NCBI GenBank assembly: GCA_017610385.1
Contig: JAFCCC010000003.1
Location: forward strand, 1 to 64,000
Direction of reading: 5' to 3'
DNA length: 64,000 nucleotides
DNA from: Candidatus Nanohalarchaeota archaeon
Lineage (GTDB): Archaea; Nanohalarchaeota; Nanosalinia; Nanosalinales; JAFCCC01
Shown here piece after piece: positions 1,513 through 10,394 of the stretch; positions within the stretch are counted from its first letter, which is position 1; every line of letters starts with the position of its first letter. A program made the position numbers and the translations under genes. Under the pieces are notes generated by a model that saw only the letters and a list, made by a program, of their open reading frames with translations, was not told the origin of the DNA and did no database searches.

Positions 1513-2328
1513 TTATAAATCATCTAAAGGACTTTGAATATTTTTTAATTTGCTGTTTGCAACATGAGTATAAATTTGGGTTGTTTGTAATCTTGAATGA
1601 CCCAACAAAGTTTGTATATATCTTATGTTTATTCCTTTTTCCAATAAATGGGTTGCGAAACTGTGTCTTAATGTGTGACAACTTACCTTCTTTTTAATGT
1701 TTGCTTTTTTTGCAGCATATTCAAATATTTTTTGAACAGCTTTTATAGAATATTTGTTATTTCTTCCTAAAAATAAATATTTTTGATGCTGTTCAAGCGC
1801 AATATAATTTCTAAGGTCTGGTTTTAGTTTTTCCGGAAGCATAACATACCTTTGTTTATTTCCCTTTCCTAATATTTTTACTACATTTCTTTCAAAATCT
1901 ATATTATTTACTTCTAGATTTACAAGTTCTGAAACCCTTAAACCCAAACCATAGAGACATTTTAATACTAATTTGTGTTTCGTGTTATTTGCAGAATTTA
2001 TTATCTTTTTTACTTCTTCTTTTGAAAGTACGGTTGGAAGTTTATTTTCCCGTTTTGGTCGTTTTATATTTTTACAAATATCTTTTTTTAAGACGTTCCC
2101 GAAAAAGAATTTTAGTGAACTTATGGCCAAATTTGCAGTGATATTGGTATAATGTTTTTTTATAATTAAATACCGAAGATATTTTTTAATATCTCTTTCT
2201 TGAATTTGTGGTATTTCTTTTTTGATAAATTTTAAGAAATCTTTTACAAAATAACTATAAGATTTTTTTGTTTTTTTGCTAAGGCCTCTACAATCCAATT
2301 CGAGTTCCAGTTTCTCAAGTTCGTCCAT
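1513..2328 (-). CDS. Xer-family tyrosine recombinase/integrase (XerA/XerD-like), putative cassette-array integrase
   Basis: SAM-like N-domain; catalytic residues in GLRVSE, GKGNK, HTLRHSFATHLLE, LLGH and TTQIYTHV; likely start is MDELEK at 2328; no IntI-specific insertion. Confidence 0.93.
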   Translation of the reverse strand: MDELEKLELELDCRGLSKKTKKSYSYFVKDFLKFIKKEIPQIQERDIKKYLRYLIIKKHYTNITANLAISSLKFFFGNVLKKDICKNIKRPKRENKLPTVLSKEEVKKIINSANNTKHKLVLKCLYGLGLRVSELVNLEVNNIDFERNVVKILGKGNKQRYVMLPEKLKPDLRNYIALEQHQKYLFLGRNNKYSIKAVQKIFEYAAKKANIKKKVSCHTLRHSFATHLLEKGINIRYIQTLLGHSRLQTTQIYTHVANSKLKNIQSPLDDL

Positions 2329-2358
2329 ACATACATTTTTAATTGATTTATATATAAA

Positions 2359-2386
2359 AATGTGCATATAAGTTGTTATGTCTAAT
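2359..2386 (+). repeat. Recombinase-proximal dif-like site (attI-equivalent), 6-bp spacer
   Basis: AATGTGCATAT-AAGTTG-TTATGTCTAAT; resembles E. coli dif GGTGCGCATAA-TGTATA-TTATGTTAAAT. Confidence 0.75.
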
Positions 2387-2399
2387 TTTCTCGGGTGCC

Positions 2400-3044
2400 T
2401 TATAGCTTTTCCATAAAGAAATAGTTCCCAATATGTTCTTTTTTGCCTGCAGTCATGGTAATCAATTTGGCTTCAATTATACGAAAATGCGACTCAAATA
2501 ATTGTTTCATTTCTTCAAATGAAGAATAATATAATTTTGTTCCAGCAGGCATTTTTGCACCTTCAGGAATTATTCTTAAATCTTTACCTTTCGCTCCGAA
2601 ATCAGGATTTTGATTATTGAAACAAATTGATAGATATTTTCCTTTTTCATTCAAAATCCTTTTAATATTCTCTAAATATTTGTTTCTTTGCTCAGGTGGT
2701 ATGTGGTGCAAAATTGCCCATTCCAATACAAAATCAAATTTATTATTTATTTCATCTAAATCAGCAACATCAAGAGACATAAATTTGATTTTTACATTAT
2801 GTTTCGCCGCATTTCCTTTTGCTAGTTTTATTGCATTTTCTGAGATGTCTATCCCTGTTACATCAAAACCTTTTGAAGCCAAATAAATAGCATAGAATCC
2901 TTCGCCACATCCAACATCGAGAACTTTACATGGTTTAATTTTTTCACTCTCAATTAGTTTTACTAATTCTTTTGGTGGCTCGGATTCTGTCCAGACTGCT
3001 CCTTCTTCATATATTTCTTCAAACATTTCTTTATCATTACTCAT
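2400..3044 (-). CDS. Class I SAM-dependent methyltransferase (cassette 1)
   Basis: VLDVGCGEG motif I, GIDIS, FDFVLE; TehB/TPMT-like. Confidence 0.9.
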   Translation of the reverse strand: MSNDKEMFEEIYEEGAVWTESEPPKELVKLIESEKIKPCKVLDVGCGEGFYAIYLASKGFDVTGIDISENAIKLAKGNAAKHNVKIKFMSLDVADLDEINNKFDFVLEWAILHHIPPEQRNKYLENIKRILNEKGKYLSICFNNQNPDFGAKGKDLRIIPEGAKMPAGTKLYYSSFEEMKQLFESHFRIIEAKLITMTAGKKEHIGNYFFMEKL

Positions 3045-3152
3045 AATTTAGTTAATTGTTCCATATTATATAAAATTAGTGATTGACGGCACCCGAGAAA
3101 ACTCTGCGGTTTTTTGCTACGCAAAAAATCCCCAAATTCTGACTTCGTCAGA

Positions 3153-3182
3153 ACTTCAGATAATCGCGATGTTAGTTGTAAT
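3153..3182 (+). repeat. Cassette core site 1
   Basis: ACTTCAGATAA-TCGCGATG-TTAGTTGTAAT. Confidence 0.8.
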
Positions 3183-3192
3183 TTTTGGGCAA

Positions 3193-3555
3193 TCAAATAT
3201 AGACTTCGATTTTTTGTTTAGAATATTCTTTCTTCAAAAAATCTAGTTTATCTTTATCTAGAACTTTTTTCCTTTTCATATCAAATAGCAATATGTTTAT
3301 AAAATCGTCAAGAAACGGTTCGGCAAATGCTATCTGAAATTGTTCACTATTTTCCAAAATTAATTCTTTTATAATATCAATAAAATTTTTTGGTTGTTCA
3401 ACCAGATGAACAATTTCAGGCAAAGCTCCTAATATTTGCTTTTCAAGCTCATCCATTAACTTTTTATCCGCATTTGCCATATCAATACGTTCTTGCAGTG
3501 TTGATCGCTCTACATATAGACCTACAACCTTCTTGACGATTTCTTTTGAACCCAT
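3193..3555 (-). CDS. Hypothetical protein (cassette 2)
   Basis: 120-aa ORF exactly filling the space between a 13-bp inverted repeat pair; upstream TATA-like box. Confidence 0.75.
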   Translation of the reverse strand: MGSKEIVKKVVGLYVERSTLQERIDMANADKKLMDELEKQILGALPEIVHLVEQPKNFIDIIKELILENSEQFQIAFAEPFLDDFINILLFDMKRKKVLDKDKLDFLKKEYSKQKIEVYI

Positions 3556-3772
3556 ATTATAATGTTAATTTTAAAGTTCTTATATATCTGTCGATTGCCC
3601 AAAAACTCTTCGGGATTTTTTGCTTCGCAAAAATCGTTGCACTATCCCTCGGTCTTTTCTATGAAAAGACGCAACTAACAGGAATTTAACGGTTCCGAAA
3701 CCTTGCAGGTTTCTACACCCAAATTTGATTTTCCAGCTCTGTTCCGCCTTCGGCTCCACGAGGGAAAATCAA

Positions 3773-3802
3773 ACTTCGCTTAATCCTGATGTTATACGAC
3801 AT
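3773..3802 (+). repeat. Cassette core site 2
   Basis: ACTTCGCTTAA-TCCTGATG-TTATACGACAT. Confidence 0.8.
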
Positions 3803-3850
3803 TCGCTCGCAGGCACAAAATTATTAAATGATTTAAGTTAACTAATTTTT

Positions 3851-4369
3851 ATGGATGATAAAACTAGAAAAAAGATTGAAGAATATGCAAAATCAATGAG
3901 ATGGACACCTAAAGATTTTTATTGGAAACATGCATTTATGGTTAGAGAATTCGCTCTAATGATTCAAAAAAGAGTCGGCGGAGATAAAGATATTGTTGAA
4001 GTTTCAGCACTTTTACATGATATTGGAAAATCAAAATTGCTCGGTCCTAAACACGAGGAAATTAGCGCAAAATTAGCAAAGGAATTTCTTGAACAAGTAG
4101 GATTTGATATAAATAAAATCAAGAAAATTGTCGAGTGTATAGAGTATAAAAATTTTAAGTCTATTGAAGCAAGAATTTTGCGCTCCGCCGACTCTATGAG
4201 TCTACTCAGGGACAAGGAAGGTCAAAATTGGTATTTTAAGACTATCTTAAAGAATAATAATGAGCGAATTCTCAAAGAGCTAAAAAAATCTTATTCTGAA
4301 ATTGAGTTTGATTTTGCAAAGAAGTTTGTTGAAGAAAATTACAAAAAATTAGTTAAAAAATATGAATAG
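3851..4369 (+). CDS. HD-domain phosphohydrolase (cassette 3)
   Basis: H...ALLHDIGK...H...D (RSADS) HD-family motifs. Confidence 0.88.
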   Translation: MDDKTRKKIEEYAKSMRWTPKDFYWKHAFMVREFALMIQKRVGGDKDIVEVSALLHDIGKSKLLGPKHEEISAKLAKEFLEQVGFDINKIKKIVECIEYKNFKSIEARILRSADSMSLLRDKEGQNWYFKTILKNNNERILKELKKSYSEIEFDFAKKFVEENYKKLVKKYE

Positions 4370-4415
4370 AGTGCCTGCTCGCGGACGCTGCGCTTAAAAT
4401 TCTTTCTGAATTTTA

Positions 4416-4445
4416 CACTCGTATATCCCTAACGTTAGACGTAAT
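4416..4445 (+). repeat. Cassette core site 3
   Basis: CACTCGTATAT-CCCTAACG-TTAGACGTAAT. Confidence 0.7.
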
Positions 4446-4502
4446 CGTAAGAGATGCCTACAAGAAAGAAAGATTTATTAATGCCCCAATTTTACTAAAT
4501 TT

Positions 4503-4985
4503 ATGGAGAAAAAAACACTTTTAGATTTTATAGCAAGGGCACACAGACATACTTATGCCGCACCAAAAGAAGTCAGAAAACAACATAGGTGTGAGGTGCC
4601 CATTCAAGAAGGTCATAAAGATTATGAATTTGTAGAAGGAGATTTAAGATATCACGATTCCTATGCAGGAAGCCAGTGGGCACCTGGAAGAGAAGTTGTT
4701 TTCTTTCAAGGAAATCCTATTTGGTGTATGGCATATCAAGGACAGCATAATTCAAAATATAATGACGCTTTTTTCCACGAACAAGCATTTCCATTTTTGA
4801 AAAAAGCTTTAATGAATTTTGATGACAGCATGCCTTTTAGAGGTCCTAAAGAATTCTCAGATGGTGCTTTCAAATATACTTTTGAAATGGAAGGAAATTA
4901 TGATTATTTCAAAGGGCAAGAGAGAATTCTTTACAAAGGAGAAAGTGTTTTTTTCCAAGATGTTATGGGTTCATTAATAACATAG
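4503..4985 (+). CDS. DUF5680-like protein (cassette 4)
   Basis: YHDSYAG...GREVVF....PIWCMAY.G and PFRGP..F..G.F.Y pattern recalled for DUF5680. Confidence 0.7.
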   Translation: MEKKTLLDFIARAHRHTYAAPKEVRKQHRCEVPIQEGHKDYEFVEGDLRYHDSYAGSQWAPGREVVFFQGNPIWCMAYQGQHNSKYNDAFFHEQAFPFLKKALMNFDDSMPFRGPKEFSDGAFKYTFEMEGNYDYFKGQERILYKGESVFFQDVMGSLIT

Positions 4986-5135
4986 AACGACATCTCTTAC
5001 GACTTCTTCGGAGTTTTTTCAAAACTCCTCGACCACGCCTTGCAGGCTCTCCTTCGGATCGGGGGCAATTAACAGCAATTAAGAGGAAAATCCCTTGCAG
5101 GAATTTTCCCAAATTTGCTCCACTCCGTTACGCAA

Positions 5136-5165
5136 ACTTCTTATAATCATGATGTTATACGATAT
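5136..5165 (+). repeat. Cassette core site 4
   Basis: ACTTCTTATAA-TCATGATG-TTATACGATAT. Confidence 0.8.
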
Positions 5166-5216
5166 TTGTAATTGTGCATAGCAAATTTTATAAAATTAAT
5201 AAATAACTATATTTTT

Positions 5217-5477
5217 GTGAGACATGAAAAAAAAGTTTGGCCAGAATATTTTCAAAAAATCCTTGATGATAAAAAAACTTATGAGCTTCGTCTTGCTGAT
5301 TGGGAATGCAACGAAGGAGATATTTTAGTTTTGCGGGAATGGAATCCGGAAACTAAAGAATACACTGGAAGAGAAATTGAAAAGAAAGTTACTTATGTTG
5401 GCAAAACTAAAAATTTTACATTCTGGCCAAAAGAAGATGTTGAAAAATATGGTTATCAAATCATAGCTTTCAAGTAG
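5217..5477 (+). CDS. ASCH/PUA-fold (DUF3850-like) protein (cassette 5)
   Basis: HEKKVWPEYFQKILDDKKTYELR...GDILVLREW...YTGR; probable GTG start at 5217. Confidence 0.85.
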   Translation: MRHEKKVWPEYFQKILDDKKTYELRLADWECNEGDILVLREWNPETKEYTGREIEKKVTYVGKTKNFTFWPKEDVEKYGYQIIAFK

Positions 5478-5520
5478 AACGGCACATTACAAACGCTAAA
5501 GAGGACGCTACGCTCCAGAA

Positions 5521-5550
5521 ACTTCTCATAAGCCTGGTGTTATACGCAAT
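5521..5550 (+). repeat. Cassette core site 5
   Basis: ACTTCTCATAA-GCCTGGTG-TTATACGCAAT. Confidence 0.8.
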
Positions 5551-5566
5551 TTTTCGATGGGCGGAT

Positions 5567-5896
5567 CTAGTGTGGGAACAAAATCTCTGCAAGAATCCCT
5601 AGTAAAACAAAAAAACCTAAGATTGTAGATATAAATATCAAAACAGAATAATCTTTCTTTTTTGTAATGCCAATAATACCGCAAAAAAAAGCAGCAATAC
5701 CAGAAAAGAACCCGACTAACATCGGCAAGGCTATTCCAGGTCTAACTAGAATATCCTGTGGTATTGTTCTCCCAGCTGGAATAGATTCATAAAGATCTAC
5801 AAAGGATATGCCGATATAAATAAATATTGGCGTAAAAACAAGTAATGCAAATGATAATTTACCTAAATTACTCTTTGGTATAAACTTTATTTTCAT
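5567..5896 (-). CDS. Small 3-TM membrane protein (cassette 6)
   Basis: Three hydrophobic segments; enclosed by a 14-bp inverted repeat pair. Confidence 0.8.
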   Translation of the reverse strand: MKIKFIPKSNLGKLSFALLVFTPIFIYIGISFVDLYESIPAGRTIPQDILVRPGIALPMLVGFFSGIAAFFCGIIGITKKKDYSVLIFISTILGFFVLLGILAEILFPH

Positions 5897-6063
5897 ATTC
5901 TAATAAGAAATATTAATGAGACATATTATTAAGTAAATAACTGTTTGTTTTGATACTATCCCTCGTCCATCGAAAAACTTCTTCCGCTTCGCTCCAGAAA
6001 CTTCTCTTCCAGATTTATTCATTTACCCTTTTAGATTTAATCAAACAAAGTAATAGTATACTT

Positions 6064-6495
6064 ATGTTGGCTAGAATTAAAAATTTCCTGAGTTTCCTGA
6101 ATGGCCTTTTGAATTTTATTCTTTATGGGCGTTATGACTGTGTAGCCGCGATTATACTTACAAAAGATAATTGTATTTGGCTTGTTAAGTTTGCAAAGGA
6201 ATATGGATTGCCTGGAGGAATCGTAAAACATGATGAATCTTTAGAAGAAGCCATTAAACGAGAAGTAAAAGAAGAAACTGGAATTATTGCAAACTCTGTA
6301 AAGTTATTTTATTCTGAAGAACGTTCTGGCATTTCTAAAACGTTCAATGTATATGAAATTACAAATTATGAATTAACCTTAAAATCTTCTCTAGAAGGTA
6401 AACCCGTGAAAGTAAATTTAGTTCATCTCCCTAAACGGATGAGAGGAAGTCATGAAAAAATAATTAAACTATGGTTAAATCAGGAAAAATCTTAA
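6064..6495 (+). CDS. NUDIX hydrolase
   Basis: GLPGGIVKHDESLEEAIKREVKEETG Nudix box; likely start at ATG 6064. Confidence 0.85.
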   Translation: MLARIKNFLSFLNGLLNFILYGRYDCVAAIILTKDNCIWLVKFAKEYGLPGGIVKHDESLEEAIKREVKEETGIIANSVKLFYSEERSGISKTFNVYEITNYELTLKSSLEGKPVKVNLVHLPKRMRGSHEKIIKLWLNQEKS

Positions 6496-10282: not shown

Positions 10283-10394
10283 AGCCCCAGGCGAGATTTG
10301 AACTCACGACCTTTACCTGATTGGCGCAACTGGTTACCAAGGTCTAGCGGGATTGGGTCTTATCCTAACGCTCTACCAGCTGAGCTACTGGAGC
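10283..10394 (-). tRNA. tRNA-Thr(GGT) with two introns (anticodon stem 28/29: 10344-10366; 37/38: 10319-10334)
   Basis: Reverse complement reads GCTCCAG...GAGCG TT^ACC TTGGTA^A GGTAA AGGTC GTGAG TTCAAAT CTCGC CTGGGGC; BHB-like junctions. Confidence 0.88.

Follow-up and report, generated by a model that had tools for sequence, protein, structure and literature searches.

A row of single-gene cassettes beside an Xer-type recombinase gene in a small archaeal genome looks like an integron made from Xer/dif parts

The DNA studied here comes from Candidatus Nanohalarchaeota archaeon (GCA_017610385.1; 788 kb in 18 contigs, 93.5% complete), and the window, meaning the whole stretch analysed, covers the 64,000 nucleotides at positions 1-64,000 of contig JAFCCC010000003.1. 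In this window, a first site with a 6-bp spacer and a row of six single-gene cassettes come after the gene of a XerA-type tyrosine recombinase, on the strand opposite to it (Table 1). The first site, 28-55 nt upstream of the recombinase ATG, is divergent from the gene, whose open frame extends to 2367, into the site. The cassette ORFs are divided between the strands (three plus, three minus), and no recombinase is encoded in the window's cassettes. Cassettes are also present at two further loci of the genome, on contigs C9 and C11. The C11 locus is a second array, and C9 has a lone module between tRNA-like genes. At gathering score, Rfam matches only two tRNAs in the whole window, and a scan for bacterial-type promoters and terminators gives signals at or below the shuffled level. 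The GC skew in the window tracks gene direction with no terminus visible, the assembly being in 18 contigs. Among the sequencing runs listed, words of the window are found only in three DNA runs (5-6%, all contigs), and no RNA run is among them.

Table 1. Features of the recombinase gene, the first site and the cassette array (positions in the window).
Feature	Position	Strand	Closing-stem arms	Module and core site	Details
XerA-type tyrosine recombinase gene	1513..2331	-			272 aa from ATG at 2331
First site (attI-like), 11-6-11	2359..2386	+			arms 2359-2369 and 2376-2386; 6-bp spacer 2370-2375; break between 2375 and 2376
Cassette 1	2376..3171	+	2386-2399 and 3088-3101; 14-nt exact stem	module 3088-3171; core 3153-3182; model R1 30.9 bits at 3093-3183	ORF 2400-3044 (minus), SAM methyltransferase (Pfam)
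Cassette 2	3172..3791	+	3182-3194 and 3593-3605; 12-nt exact stem	long module 3593-3791; inverted copy 3672-3692; box 3718-3725; core 3773-3802; R1 89.3 bits at 3666-3803	ORF 3193-3555 (minus), no family
Cassette 3	3792..4434	+	3804-3816 and 4371-4383; 8-nt exact stem, more pairs by eye	short module 4371-4434; core 4416-4445; no inverted copy	ORF 3851-4369 (plus), HD domain (Pfam)
Cassette 4	4435..5154	+	4445-4456 and 4991-5002; 12-nt exact stem	long module 4991-5154; inverted copy near 5063-5086; box 5108-5115; core 5136-5165; R1 56.6 bits at 5060-5166	ORF 4503-4985 (plus), DUF5680
Cassette 5	5155..5539	+	5165-5177 and 5482-5493; one bulged base	short module 5482-5539; core 5521-5550	ORF ending 5477 (plus), DUF3850/ASCH (Pfam)
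Cassette 6	5540..6016	+	5550-5564 and 5961-5977		ORF 5567-5896 (minus), small membrane protein, no family
Degenerate terminal site of cassette 6	~6000-6016				left-arm-like start kept, remainder unlike the other sites

The recombinase consists of a SAM-like N-domain and the Pfam domain PF00589. It scores 271.9 bits over the whole protein (271.5 in the genome search) against the NCBIfam XerA equivalog NF040815, with a cut-off of 220, and 236 bits against the integron integrase model TIGR02249, under the cut-off of 265. The protein is collinear with P. abyssi XerA, whereas its alignment to V. cholerae IntI4 splits into two stretches, with IntI4 residues 187-243 (57) facing 13 residues of the query; as judged from this alignment, the IntI-specific insertion, an additional domain, is absent from the window recombinase. 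In bit score, it is equally near to IntI4 (167) and to archaeal XerA (165 and 164). The preliminary description had raised the matter of a second xerA in the genome, and none lies above the XerA cut-off, the other two tyrosine recombinases scoring 82 and 95 bits against 220. No IntI-type protein is found in the 93.5% complete genome.

The first site is, letter for letter, the 11-6-11 site of the preliminary description, and the five clear cassette sites are all 11-8-11 with an 8-bp spacer. A break G/TTA (the slash marks the predicted point of exchange) is common to all six, and the bases after G/TT are not all purines. The left arm of the cassette consensus proposed earlier fits four of the five sites, and the site at 4416 departs from it. 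The strict cassette-site pattern occurs five times in the 788-kb genome, three times in the window array, once in the C11 array and once elsewhere. That the spacers all differ is correct, yet the first site and the cassette sites resemble each other in the final bases ahead of the break. All sites have one orientation and thus form direct repeats beside the recombinase gene.

In relatives, perfect or near-perfect palindromic 11-6-11 sites lie 5-365 nt upstream of xerA. A dif consensus taken only from such palindromic xerA-adjacent sites of other genomes gives four matches of at least 19/22 in the 788-kb genome, all of them cassette sites with 8-bp spacing, and 0-1 such matches in each of five shuffles; the search returned no other 6-bp-spaced site of at least 19/22 in the genome. 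Together with the XerA score, these sites bear out the description of the sites as Xer/dif-like. The first site itself has a palindromy of 6/11. The distance from left arm to break is identical in all 25 listed rows from 14 loci or contigs, one of which is a duplicate and among which the window site at 4416 is absent. In 10 other xerA loci, the half on the xerA side and the 6-bp spacer are constant and the far arm is variable (nine sequences), in agreement with the earlier proposal that the recombinase-proximal site is the insertion point. The accompanying idea of a resident chromosomal dif with an IMEX-like pile-up of cassettes has become doubtful, because a XerA above the cut-off is found in this genome only (1 of 70 in the phylum, 0 of the 69 others), because cassettes also lie on C9 and C11, and because of the tree position of most cassette-linked recombinases. 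In a quick tree, unrooted and covering the fetched loci only, 15 of 18 cassette-linked recombinases stand apart from the clade adjoining perfect palindromic dif sites, and the window's own recombinase groups weakly on the side of that clade.

Homology breakpoints in other loci and in metagenome contigs map the predicted crossover to G/TTA, as had been proposed. At locus L108, two copies of one cassette start have unrelated left contexts, and the likeness begins at the break. Between L062 and L166 it begins five bases past the break, and between L066 and L137 it also extends 12 bases to the left. Four of the 24 listed metagenome pieces (224 more exist) start inside their record at a cassette start, at 3169, 3792, 4435 and 5154, with predicted breaks at 3172, 3792, 4435 and 5155. 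The first of these pieces, matching cassette 2, has seven differences, and the stem arm of the piece matching cassette 5 lacks the bulge. Two other pieces of the list (X1 records 6 and 7) also start inside their record, away from any break. From its base 1 onward, cassette 4 matches the first cassette of locus L083 with 90.2% identity over 691 nt. The cassettes are discrete units, each starting with the TTA that follows the break, and the same cassette recurs elsewhere in other contexts. The contig joints were considered as evidence of excision and rejected, since they derive from related modules of other organisms; in the assembled contigs, which are the only material covered, no excision circle, empty site or strand-specific intermediate is seen.

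In the long modules, the core (left arm, 8 bases, right arm) is accompanied upstream by an inverted copy in which the spacing is 6 bases. The outer left arm has a box as its pairing partner, a cassette-specific stem joins both ends of the cassette, and covariation is seen in each of these pairings. Since the inverted copy has 6-nt spacing, a folded single strand would rebuild a dif-like duplex with a 2-nt bulge. The letters of the previously described 8-bp cassette spacer stand as 11-8-11, but the best interpretation is a folded duplex with 6-nt spacing in which the core strand carries two additional bases. The spacing of copy and core differs by a constant 2 bases. The inverted copy pairs over at least 11 nt with the inner left arm and four spacer bases in 14 of 25 sites, representing 10 different sequences, and controls reach 11 nt in 5 of 582. 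In 9 of 17 cassettes, it also pairs over at least 8 nt with the first bases of the cassette to which it belongs, against a best of 7 with the arm of the neighbouring cassette and 8 in 4 of 266 unrelated controls; in cassette 2 of the window, the upstream block pairs with 8 nt of its own cassette start. For the L083 cassette, the start was predicted from the inverted copy and then confirmed on reading. A closing stem of at least 12 nt exact complement is found in 9 of 14 cassettes and in 3 of 182 cross-cassette controls.

Across 12 modules, 98.7% of cells are paired and 13 of 19 pairs have changed on both sides (compensatory), with none of 500 shuffles as high and slid controls 30-50% paired; as these 12 were chosen from 14 already showing the pairing, the percentage is inflated, and the variety of compensatory pairs is unaffected. 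The long helix contains Watson-Crick pairs only, apart from a single terminal G-T, more plausibly unpaired, and in the box helix a constant A stands opposite C on the top strand. In two cases, the segment of left arm and spacer mismatches the inverted copy of its own module, for which one fixed break point provides no explanation. The attC-like fold, with paired inverted boxes, unpaired bases and the G/TT break, is confined to long modules, in the same 14 of 25 sites. The long left-arm pairing is missing in 11 of 25 sites and the own-start pairing in 8 of 17 cassettes, three window junctions included, so that either some sites do not fold or many of them are relics. The three short modules without an inverted copy, along with degraded pairings in cassettes 2 and 4 (in the latter, that of the inverted copy), suggest that the window array is old and partly decaying. 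The modules also carry extra hairpins with conserved loops, which are superfluous to the folding model. Hammerhead-like or other ribozyme modules, considered by eye, were dropped, as the candidate core letters vary.

The locus is probably an integron-like gene-cassette platform, in which the integrase is the XerA-type recombinase and the sites follow the dif plan. In the proposed mechanism, one strand of the excised circular or single-stranded cassette, top or bottom, would fold and rebuild a complete dif-like duplex with a 6/8 spacer and two extrahelical bases, closed by the cassette-specific stem. XerA would bind both arms, cut the bottom strand at the AAC facing G/TTA and exchange that single strand with the first site, which has the same last spacer bases; replication would then resolve the junction, as in integrons and CTXphi. 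The single-strand, folded-substrate route as in IntI or CTXphi, favoured in the preliminary description, fits the strong covariation found in the compared sequences.

Alternatively, XerA may integrate double-stranded cassette circles at a dif-like site through ordinary synapsis, in an IMEX-like manner, with the inverted copy and stems being accessory or regulatory and the unequal spacers limiting the reaction to one exchange pair, as happens at cer. The core arms stand side by side as in any dif site, with dif-like scores, and some short modules, including three in the window, lack an inverted copy; according to sections of PMC5357621, the 8-bp central region of cer goes with XerC-only exchange to a Holliday junction, and VGJphi integrates as duplex DNA. 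This route is nevertheless unlikely: covariation links the inverted copy to its own cassette start, located at the opposite end of the integrated cassette, which makes sense only for a fold in a circular or single-stranded form, and the 2-base spacing difference between copy and core is constant. The first reading of the modules, as plain duplex sites with accessory hairpins, was given up on this own-start covariation.

A second alternative is that the modules are selfish structured repeats (MITE-like or small RNA genes) beside genes, the row at xerA being a by-product and the modules not its sites. The module family is high-copy in three unrelated metagenomes, the summed depth reaching 137-622 at 3671-3837 and 24-988 at 5007-5173 with other bins mostly below 40 (maximum 135), and both the conserved hairpin loops and the lone module on C9 would suit such repeats. 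However, module matches show a strict relation to xerA. The model R1, constructed without any sequence of this genome and with the closing stem left out, scores 89, 57 and 31 bits on the window's modules and gives 51 matches, about 65-270 nt long, in 29 of 160 xerA loci of DPANN and CPR (12 of the 51 being training rows). All 51 lie upstream of xerA on the opposite strand, in a search spanning 0.96 Mb downstream and 0.80 Mb upstream of the gene. In addition, the core fits the dif consensus of the same recombinase family, the cassette homology begins exactly at the break, and no Rfam family matches the modules in 2300-6100 at E up to 1. Selfish repeats are therefore quite improbable. The least probable explanation is a CALIN, with ordinary integron attC sites on which a canonical IntI outside the assembly acts in trans and which adjoin the XerA gene by coincidence. 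It would account for the attC plan (an inverted box pair around AAC ... GTT, unpaired bases, the G/TT break), and DPANN genomes with attC clusters and without IntI are recorded in supplement Data S1 of PMC9668308, but it is opposed by the lack of an IntI-type protein in the genome, by the xerA linkage and polarity kept in 29 loci, and by dif-like arms of 11 nt in modules longer than the 59-nt Nanoarchaeota attC given in that supplement.

The XerA-based platform thus combines the integron layout and a folded cassette site, yet the XerA enzyme and the dif-like 11-nt arms are kept. Integrons are the textbook gene-capture machines of bacteria, and to our knowledge their origin from Xer-like recombinases has so far been inferred from protein trees only; with XerA and dif-like arms kept in an integron layout, the step from chromosome resolution to gene capture becomes directly testable. 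The enzyme, the first site and a folding module of roughly 100 nt make up a small set of parts suitable for testing in E. coli. The platform provides a concrete means by which ultra-small archaea and CPR bacteria could exchange genes, and a candidate integrase for archaeal cassette clusters without IntI. As an example of such exchange, the cassette that is 90% identical between the window and L083 is accompanied by recombinases only 46% identical. More tentatively, the DPANN/CPR arrays may constitute a separate, widespread integron class with a plain Xer-type integrase and attC-like sites that still rebuild the dif duplex. If true, these arrays would be a living intermediate between Xer/dif and IntI/attC, and the class may supply the integrase that is missing from the many attC clusters reported without IntI in archaea.

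No description of such a system was found in the literature searched. The nearest archaeal report, Ghaly et al. 2022 (PMC9668308), describes cassette arrays in archaeal MAGs, most without IntI and several in DPANN orders; in the sections covered, canonical attC and an IntI with the extra domain are required, and no Xer-type integrase or dif-like sites are named. The motif strings searched for are absent from its supplement text (141,366 characters, which may not contain all attC sequences). With cer/psi, as described in PMC5357621, the system shares the 8-bp central region, the proposed exchange of one strand pair and, to one side of the core, accessory DNA of about 100-200 bp. In contrast to cer/psi, the flanking DNA here consists of an inverted core copy and hairpins, and the function is gene capture instead of dimer resolution. 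We know of no ArgR/PepA-type partner for the system here. Acinetobacter pdif modules are small gene modules bounded by Xer-type sites, but they are plasmid-borne with inversely oriented flanking sites, whereas all sites here are direct repeats of one polarity beside the recombinase gene.

In CTXphi, two inverted dif-like sites fold in single-stranded DNA. The inverted 6-nt-spaced copy facing an 8-nt core resembles an attP(+) of this type in mechanism only, not in family membership, and no phage genes accompany the CTXphi-type folding sites here. XerC-only catalysis and dif-like attP sites of such phages are described in sections of PMC5357621. As in Xer/dif and IMEX systems (CTXphi, VGJphi, TLCphi), a Xer-family recombinase is accompanied by 11-spacer-11 sites, and mobile units without their own recombinase accumulate in tandem. 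Unlike in IMEX, the units are single genes instead of phages, the first site adjoins the recombinase gene and is conserved together with it, and the host phylum is otherwise without XerA.

Classical attC sites have named boxes and bottom-strand chemistry. The system here differs from integrons in its 11-nt dif-like arms, in a recombinase without the IntI-specific insertion, in the extra cassette-specific closing stem, box helix and long interiors, and in ORFs on both strands. It resembles them in a recombinase gene divergent from the adjacent insertion site, an arrangement also seen in 10 other loci, in a recombinase as close to V. cholerae IntI4 as to archaeal XerA, in a row of mostly single-gene cassettes, in cassettes that end in an imperfect inverted-repeat site of variable sequence with a conserved fold and unpaired bases, and in the break at G/TT.

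The source genome is archaeal (788 kb in 18 contigs, 32% G+C, 93.5% complete), and the window is the beginning of contig C3. Downstream of the first site lie six units of 385-796 nt with a single ORF apiece, three on the plus strand and three on the minus strand. Every unit starts with TTA immediately behind a G, and at its other end a non-coding element of about 60-200 nt bears the following site. The five cassette sites have an 11-8-11 arrangement, and the array is closed by a sixth, degenerate site near 6000-6016. The letters and coordinates of the sites in the preliminary description are correct on re-reading of the sequence; its strict pattern occurs five times in the genome, three times in the window array, once in a second array and once in another place. 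The observed row of sites is real and far above chance.

Features of the recombinase/cassette locus and of related places (C, contigs; L, loci around relatives of the recombinase; G, genomes of the phylum; positions without a prefix are in the window)
Feature	Location	Strand	Description
Pus10 and SRP54	both sides of the locus		
Tyrosine recombinase	1513-2331	minus	272 aa
First site	2359-2386		11-6-11; starts 28 nt upstream of the recombinase ATG
Cassette 1 ORF			SAM methyltransferase
Cassette 2 ORF			120-aa protein, no assigned family
Cassette 3 ORF			HD-domain protein
Cassette 4 ORF			DUF5680 protein
Cassette 5 ORF			DUF3850/ASCH protein
Cassette 6 ORF			small membrane protein
Hairpin apices/boxes inside long modules	3635-3643; 3701-3709; 3734-3741 with 3759-3764; 5038-5046; 5093-5101		
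tRNA match	10283-10394		112 nt long; probably intron-bearing
R1 matches	window, three		89, 57 and 31 bits
R1 match	C11:~120380-121910	minus	two-cassette array adjoining a tRNA gene; cassette site 84 bits
R1 match	C9:36989-37800		single-cassette insertion at a dif-like place; end site 68 bits
R1 match	C9:4538-4634 (L192 1501-1597)		weak lone module, 33.5 bits
Palindromic sites, 11/11 arm positions	L034, L042		
Palindromic sites, 10/11 arm positions	L049, L134, L036, L131, L075, L067		
Broken XerA-like frames	G003:C7:58-672; G030:C11:156-815; G047:C9:4220-5014		
Sites of L039	12983, 13805, 14796		downstream of the recombinase, same strand

Four lines of evidence agree, within 3 nt, on G|TTA as the break. 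In 10 loci the xerA-proximal arm and the 6-bp spacer are identical and the far arm occurs in 9 different sequences, placing the exchange at the spacer/far-arm border and supporting the attI-like role proposed for the first site. In L108, one cassette start occurs twice behind unrelated sequences, with similarity starting at the break; between L062 and L166 it starts 5 bases past the break, and between L066 and L137 it also covers the 12 bases left of the break. Contigs from three unrelated metagenomes contain relatives of cassettes 2, 3, 4 and 5. Among the 24 contig pieces listed, with 224 others beyond these, four have record-internal starts at cassette starts (3169, 3792, 4435 and 5154, for predicted breaks at 3172, 3792, 4435 and 5155), and two more start record-internally away from any break. 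Cassette 4 and the first cassette of L083 are 90.2% identical over 691 nt from base one, and the two recombinases share 46% identity. The spacer measures 6 bp in first sites and 8 in all later ones, and thus stays with the left partner; exchange limited to the strand that is cut at the right border would give this result.

The dif/Xer character of the sites is borne out by 160 loci fetched around relatives of the recombinase, 80 genome-derived and 80 metagenome-derived. In one group the recombinase gene has, 5-365 nt upstream, an 11-6-11 site whose palindrome is perfect or nearly so. When the consensus of these sites is scanned across the genome with spacers of 6-8 bp, the top four matches (at least 19/22) are three window cassette sites and one C11 site, all with 8-bp spacing; five shuffles give 0-1 matches at this level. 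By this test, which uses nothing from the window, the cassette sites are dif-like. The scan finds no stand-alone 6-bp-spacer site scoring at least 19/22 in the genome. Archaeal dif is described as 11-6-11, with xerA/dif modules in some archaea, in parts of PMC2958812 and PMC5357621. The suggestion that the first site is the chromosomal dif itself finds no support, as XerA above the cut-off is present in none of the other genomes covered from the phylum (70 in all, one order).

The recombinase passes the NCBI XerA equivalog model (271.9 bits, cut-off 220) and falls below the cut-off of the integron-integrase model (236 bits, cut-off 265). Among solved structures, V. cholerae IntI4 (167 bits) is about as near as XerA of P. 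abyssi (165 bits) and T. acidophilum (164 bits). The IntI4 alignment breaks into two pieces, with 57 IntI4 residues, the IntI-specific domain included, opposite 13 query residues; that with P. abyssi XerA is collinear. PMC8138268 counts XerA as a simple Xer recombinase and takes an insertion, which the window recombinase lacks, as the mark of the integron group. Another xerA, a possibility raised earlier, is absent from the assembly, in which the two remaining tyrosine recombinases, of 415 and 484 aa, reach 82 and 95 bits with the XerA model.

Each cassette end forms a module, a non-coding element carrying the core of left arm, spacer and right arm. After its first 10-11 nt, a cassette carries 8-14 nt exactly complementary to the start of its own end module. 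This closing stem has a length of 12 nt or more in 9 of 14 cassettes (cross-cassette controls, 3/182). When circularised junctions are folded, a second and stronger feature comes to light: a conserved block, lying 65-245 nt upstream of the break, repeats the core in inverted orientation. The 5' part of this inverted copy complements the start of its own cassette, with runs of 8 nt or more in 9 of 17 cassettes; the neighbouring cassette gives at most 7 nt, and 4 of 266 unrelated pairs reach 8 nt. Compensatory changes are seen where the cassette starts with TTC instead of TTA. The 3' part complements the inner left arm and the first four 'spacer' bases, with runs of 11 nt or more in 14 of 25 sites (10 different sequences; controls, 5/582). 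Between the two parts the inverted copy has one base and the core three, so that the copy has a spacing of 6 nt and the core of 8. The outer five left-arm bases pair with another box across a variable hairpin, and one A invariably faces C.

Twelve long modules, drawn from 8 loci outside the source genome, were aligned; 98.7% of the 228 cells are paired, a value inflated because the 12 were picked from 14 already showing pairing; the variety of compensatory pairs is unaffected by this choice. Changes on both sides occur in 13 of 19 pairs (0/500 shuffles as high), and sliding the partner lowers pairing to 30-50%. In a forward test on L083, the inverted copy predicted the first bases of the cassette, and reading them matched the prediction. 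The folded strand would thus rebuild an entire dif-like duplex: a left arm of box helix and long helix, a 6/8 spacer with two unpaired bases, and a right arm followed by the cassette-specific stem. This covariation favours the single-strand route put forward in the preliminary description.

Within the long modules, hairpin apices and boxes are kept across genomes, with variable stems. They have no match in an Rfam search and are candidates for a host-factor site or an RNA. A common stretch of about 60 nt lies about 40-110 nt past some cassette starts in L108 (two places), L066 and L137, within cassettes that otherwise differ.

In the window itself, the inverted copy is found at only two junctions, those of cassettes 2 and 4; compared with its L083 twin, cassette 4 has degraded versions of both pairings. 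The cassette 1 junction scores weakly (30.9 bits) with R1, a covariance model of the module built without any sequence from the source genome, and has no inverted-copy anchor in script tests. Three junctions are short forms with the closing stem only. The window array may be largely fossil.

R1 matches six places in the source genome. The C11 array has a first site like that of the window (6-bp spacer) and a diverged terminal site, and no recombinase gene was found nearby. The C9 single-cassette insertion has a first site with a 6-bp spacer, an end site with an 8-bp spacer, a closing stem of 14 nt and small ORFs on the minus strand; the lone C9 module sits between two tRNA-like genes without a cassette ORF. 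The 160 loci contain 51 matches in 29 loci (12 are training rows; L108/L109 and L063/L150 are duplicate pairs), all 51 upstream of xerA on the opposite strand, under record labels including Woesearchaeota, Nanoarchaeota and Magasanikbacteria. L039, labelled Bacteroidota, contains three similar sites, which differ in polarity from the DPANN/CPR arrays and are not matched by R1.

The 70 genomes of the phylum, from one order, yield no R1 match outside the source genome at E ≤0.001 under stricter filters. Three of them carry broken XerA-like frames (2-4 stop codons, 114-135 bits), which are decayed copies of such a recombinase. Relatives of the recombinase in other DPANN-labelled records reach 78% identity and, given the absence of XerA and R1 from the phylum's other genomes, the whole system appears to have been imported. 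A quick, unrooted FastTree of 102 recombinases places 11 of 12 palindromic-site genes in one clade of 33, which contains zero modules, and 15 of 18 module-linked genes in two other clades (Woesearchaeota-type and CPR-type); the source genome's recombinase groups with L108/L109.

At the level of sequence, the layout, the break point, the discrete and transferred nature of the cassettes and the covarying fold are established. In the proposed mechanism, the folded strand would be the recombination substrate, the bottom strand would be cut at the AAC opposite G|TTA, one strand would be exchanged with the first site, and replication would complete the reaction. The final spacer bases ahead of the break are similar between first and cassette sites, which would fit a short strand swap on that side only. 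Integron and CTXphi chemistry is the source of the analogy.

The cer and IMEX parts of this analogy are backed by PMC5357621, and PMC8371274 notes that unrelated att sites in stem-loop form are bound by P. abyssi XerA as well. A full-text literature search returned no description of cassette arrays served by Xer-type recombinases in archaea or CPR. Canonical IntI/attC integrons and many IntI-less attC clusters, DPANN orders included, are described in archaea in sections of PMC9668308, and some overlap with the Xer-based arrays is possible. The C9 and C11 insertions resemble the integron cassettes inserted outside att sites that are outlined in 10.1101/2022.09.11.507474. In conclusion, the system is best filed as the integron principle in a new, Xer-based variant.
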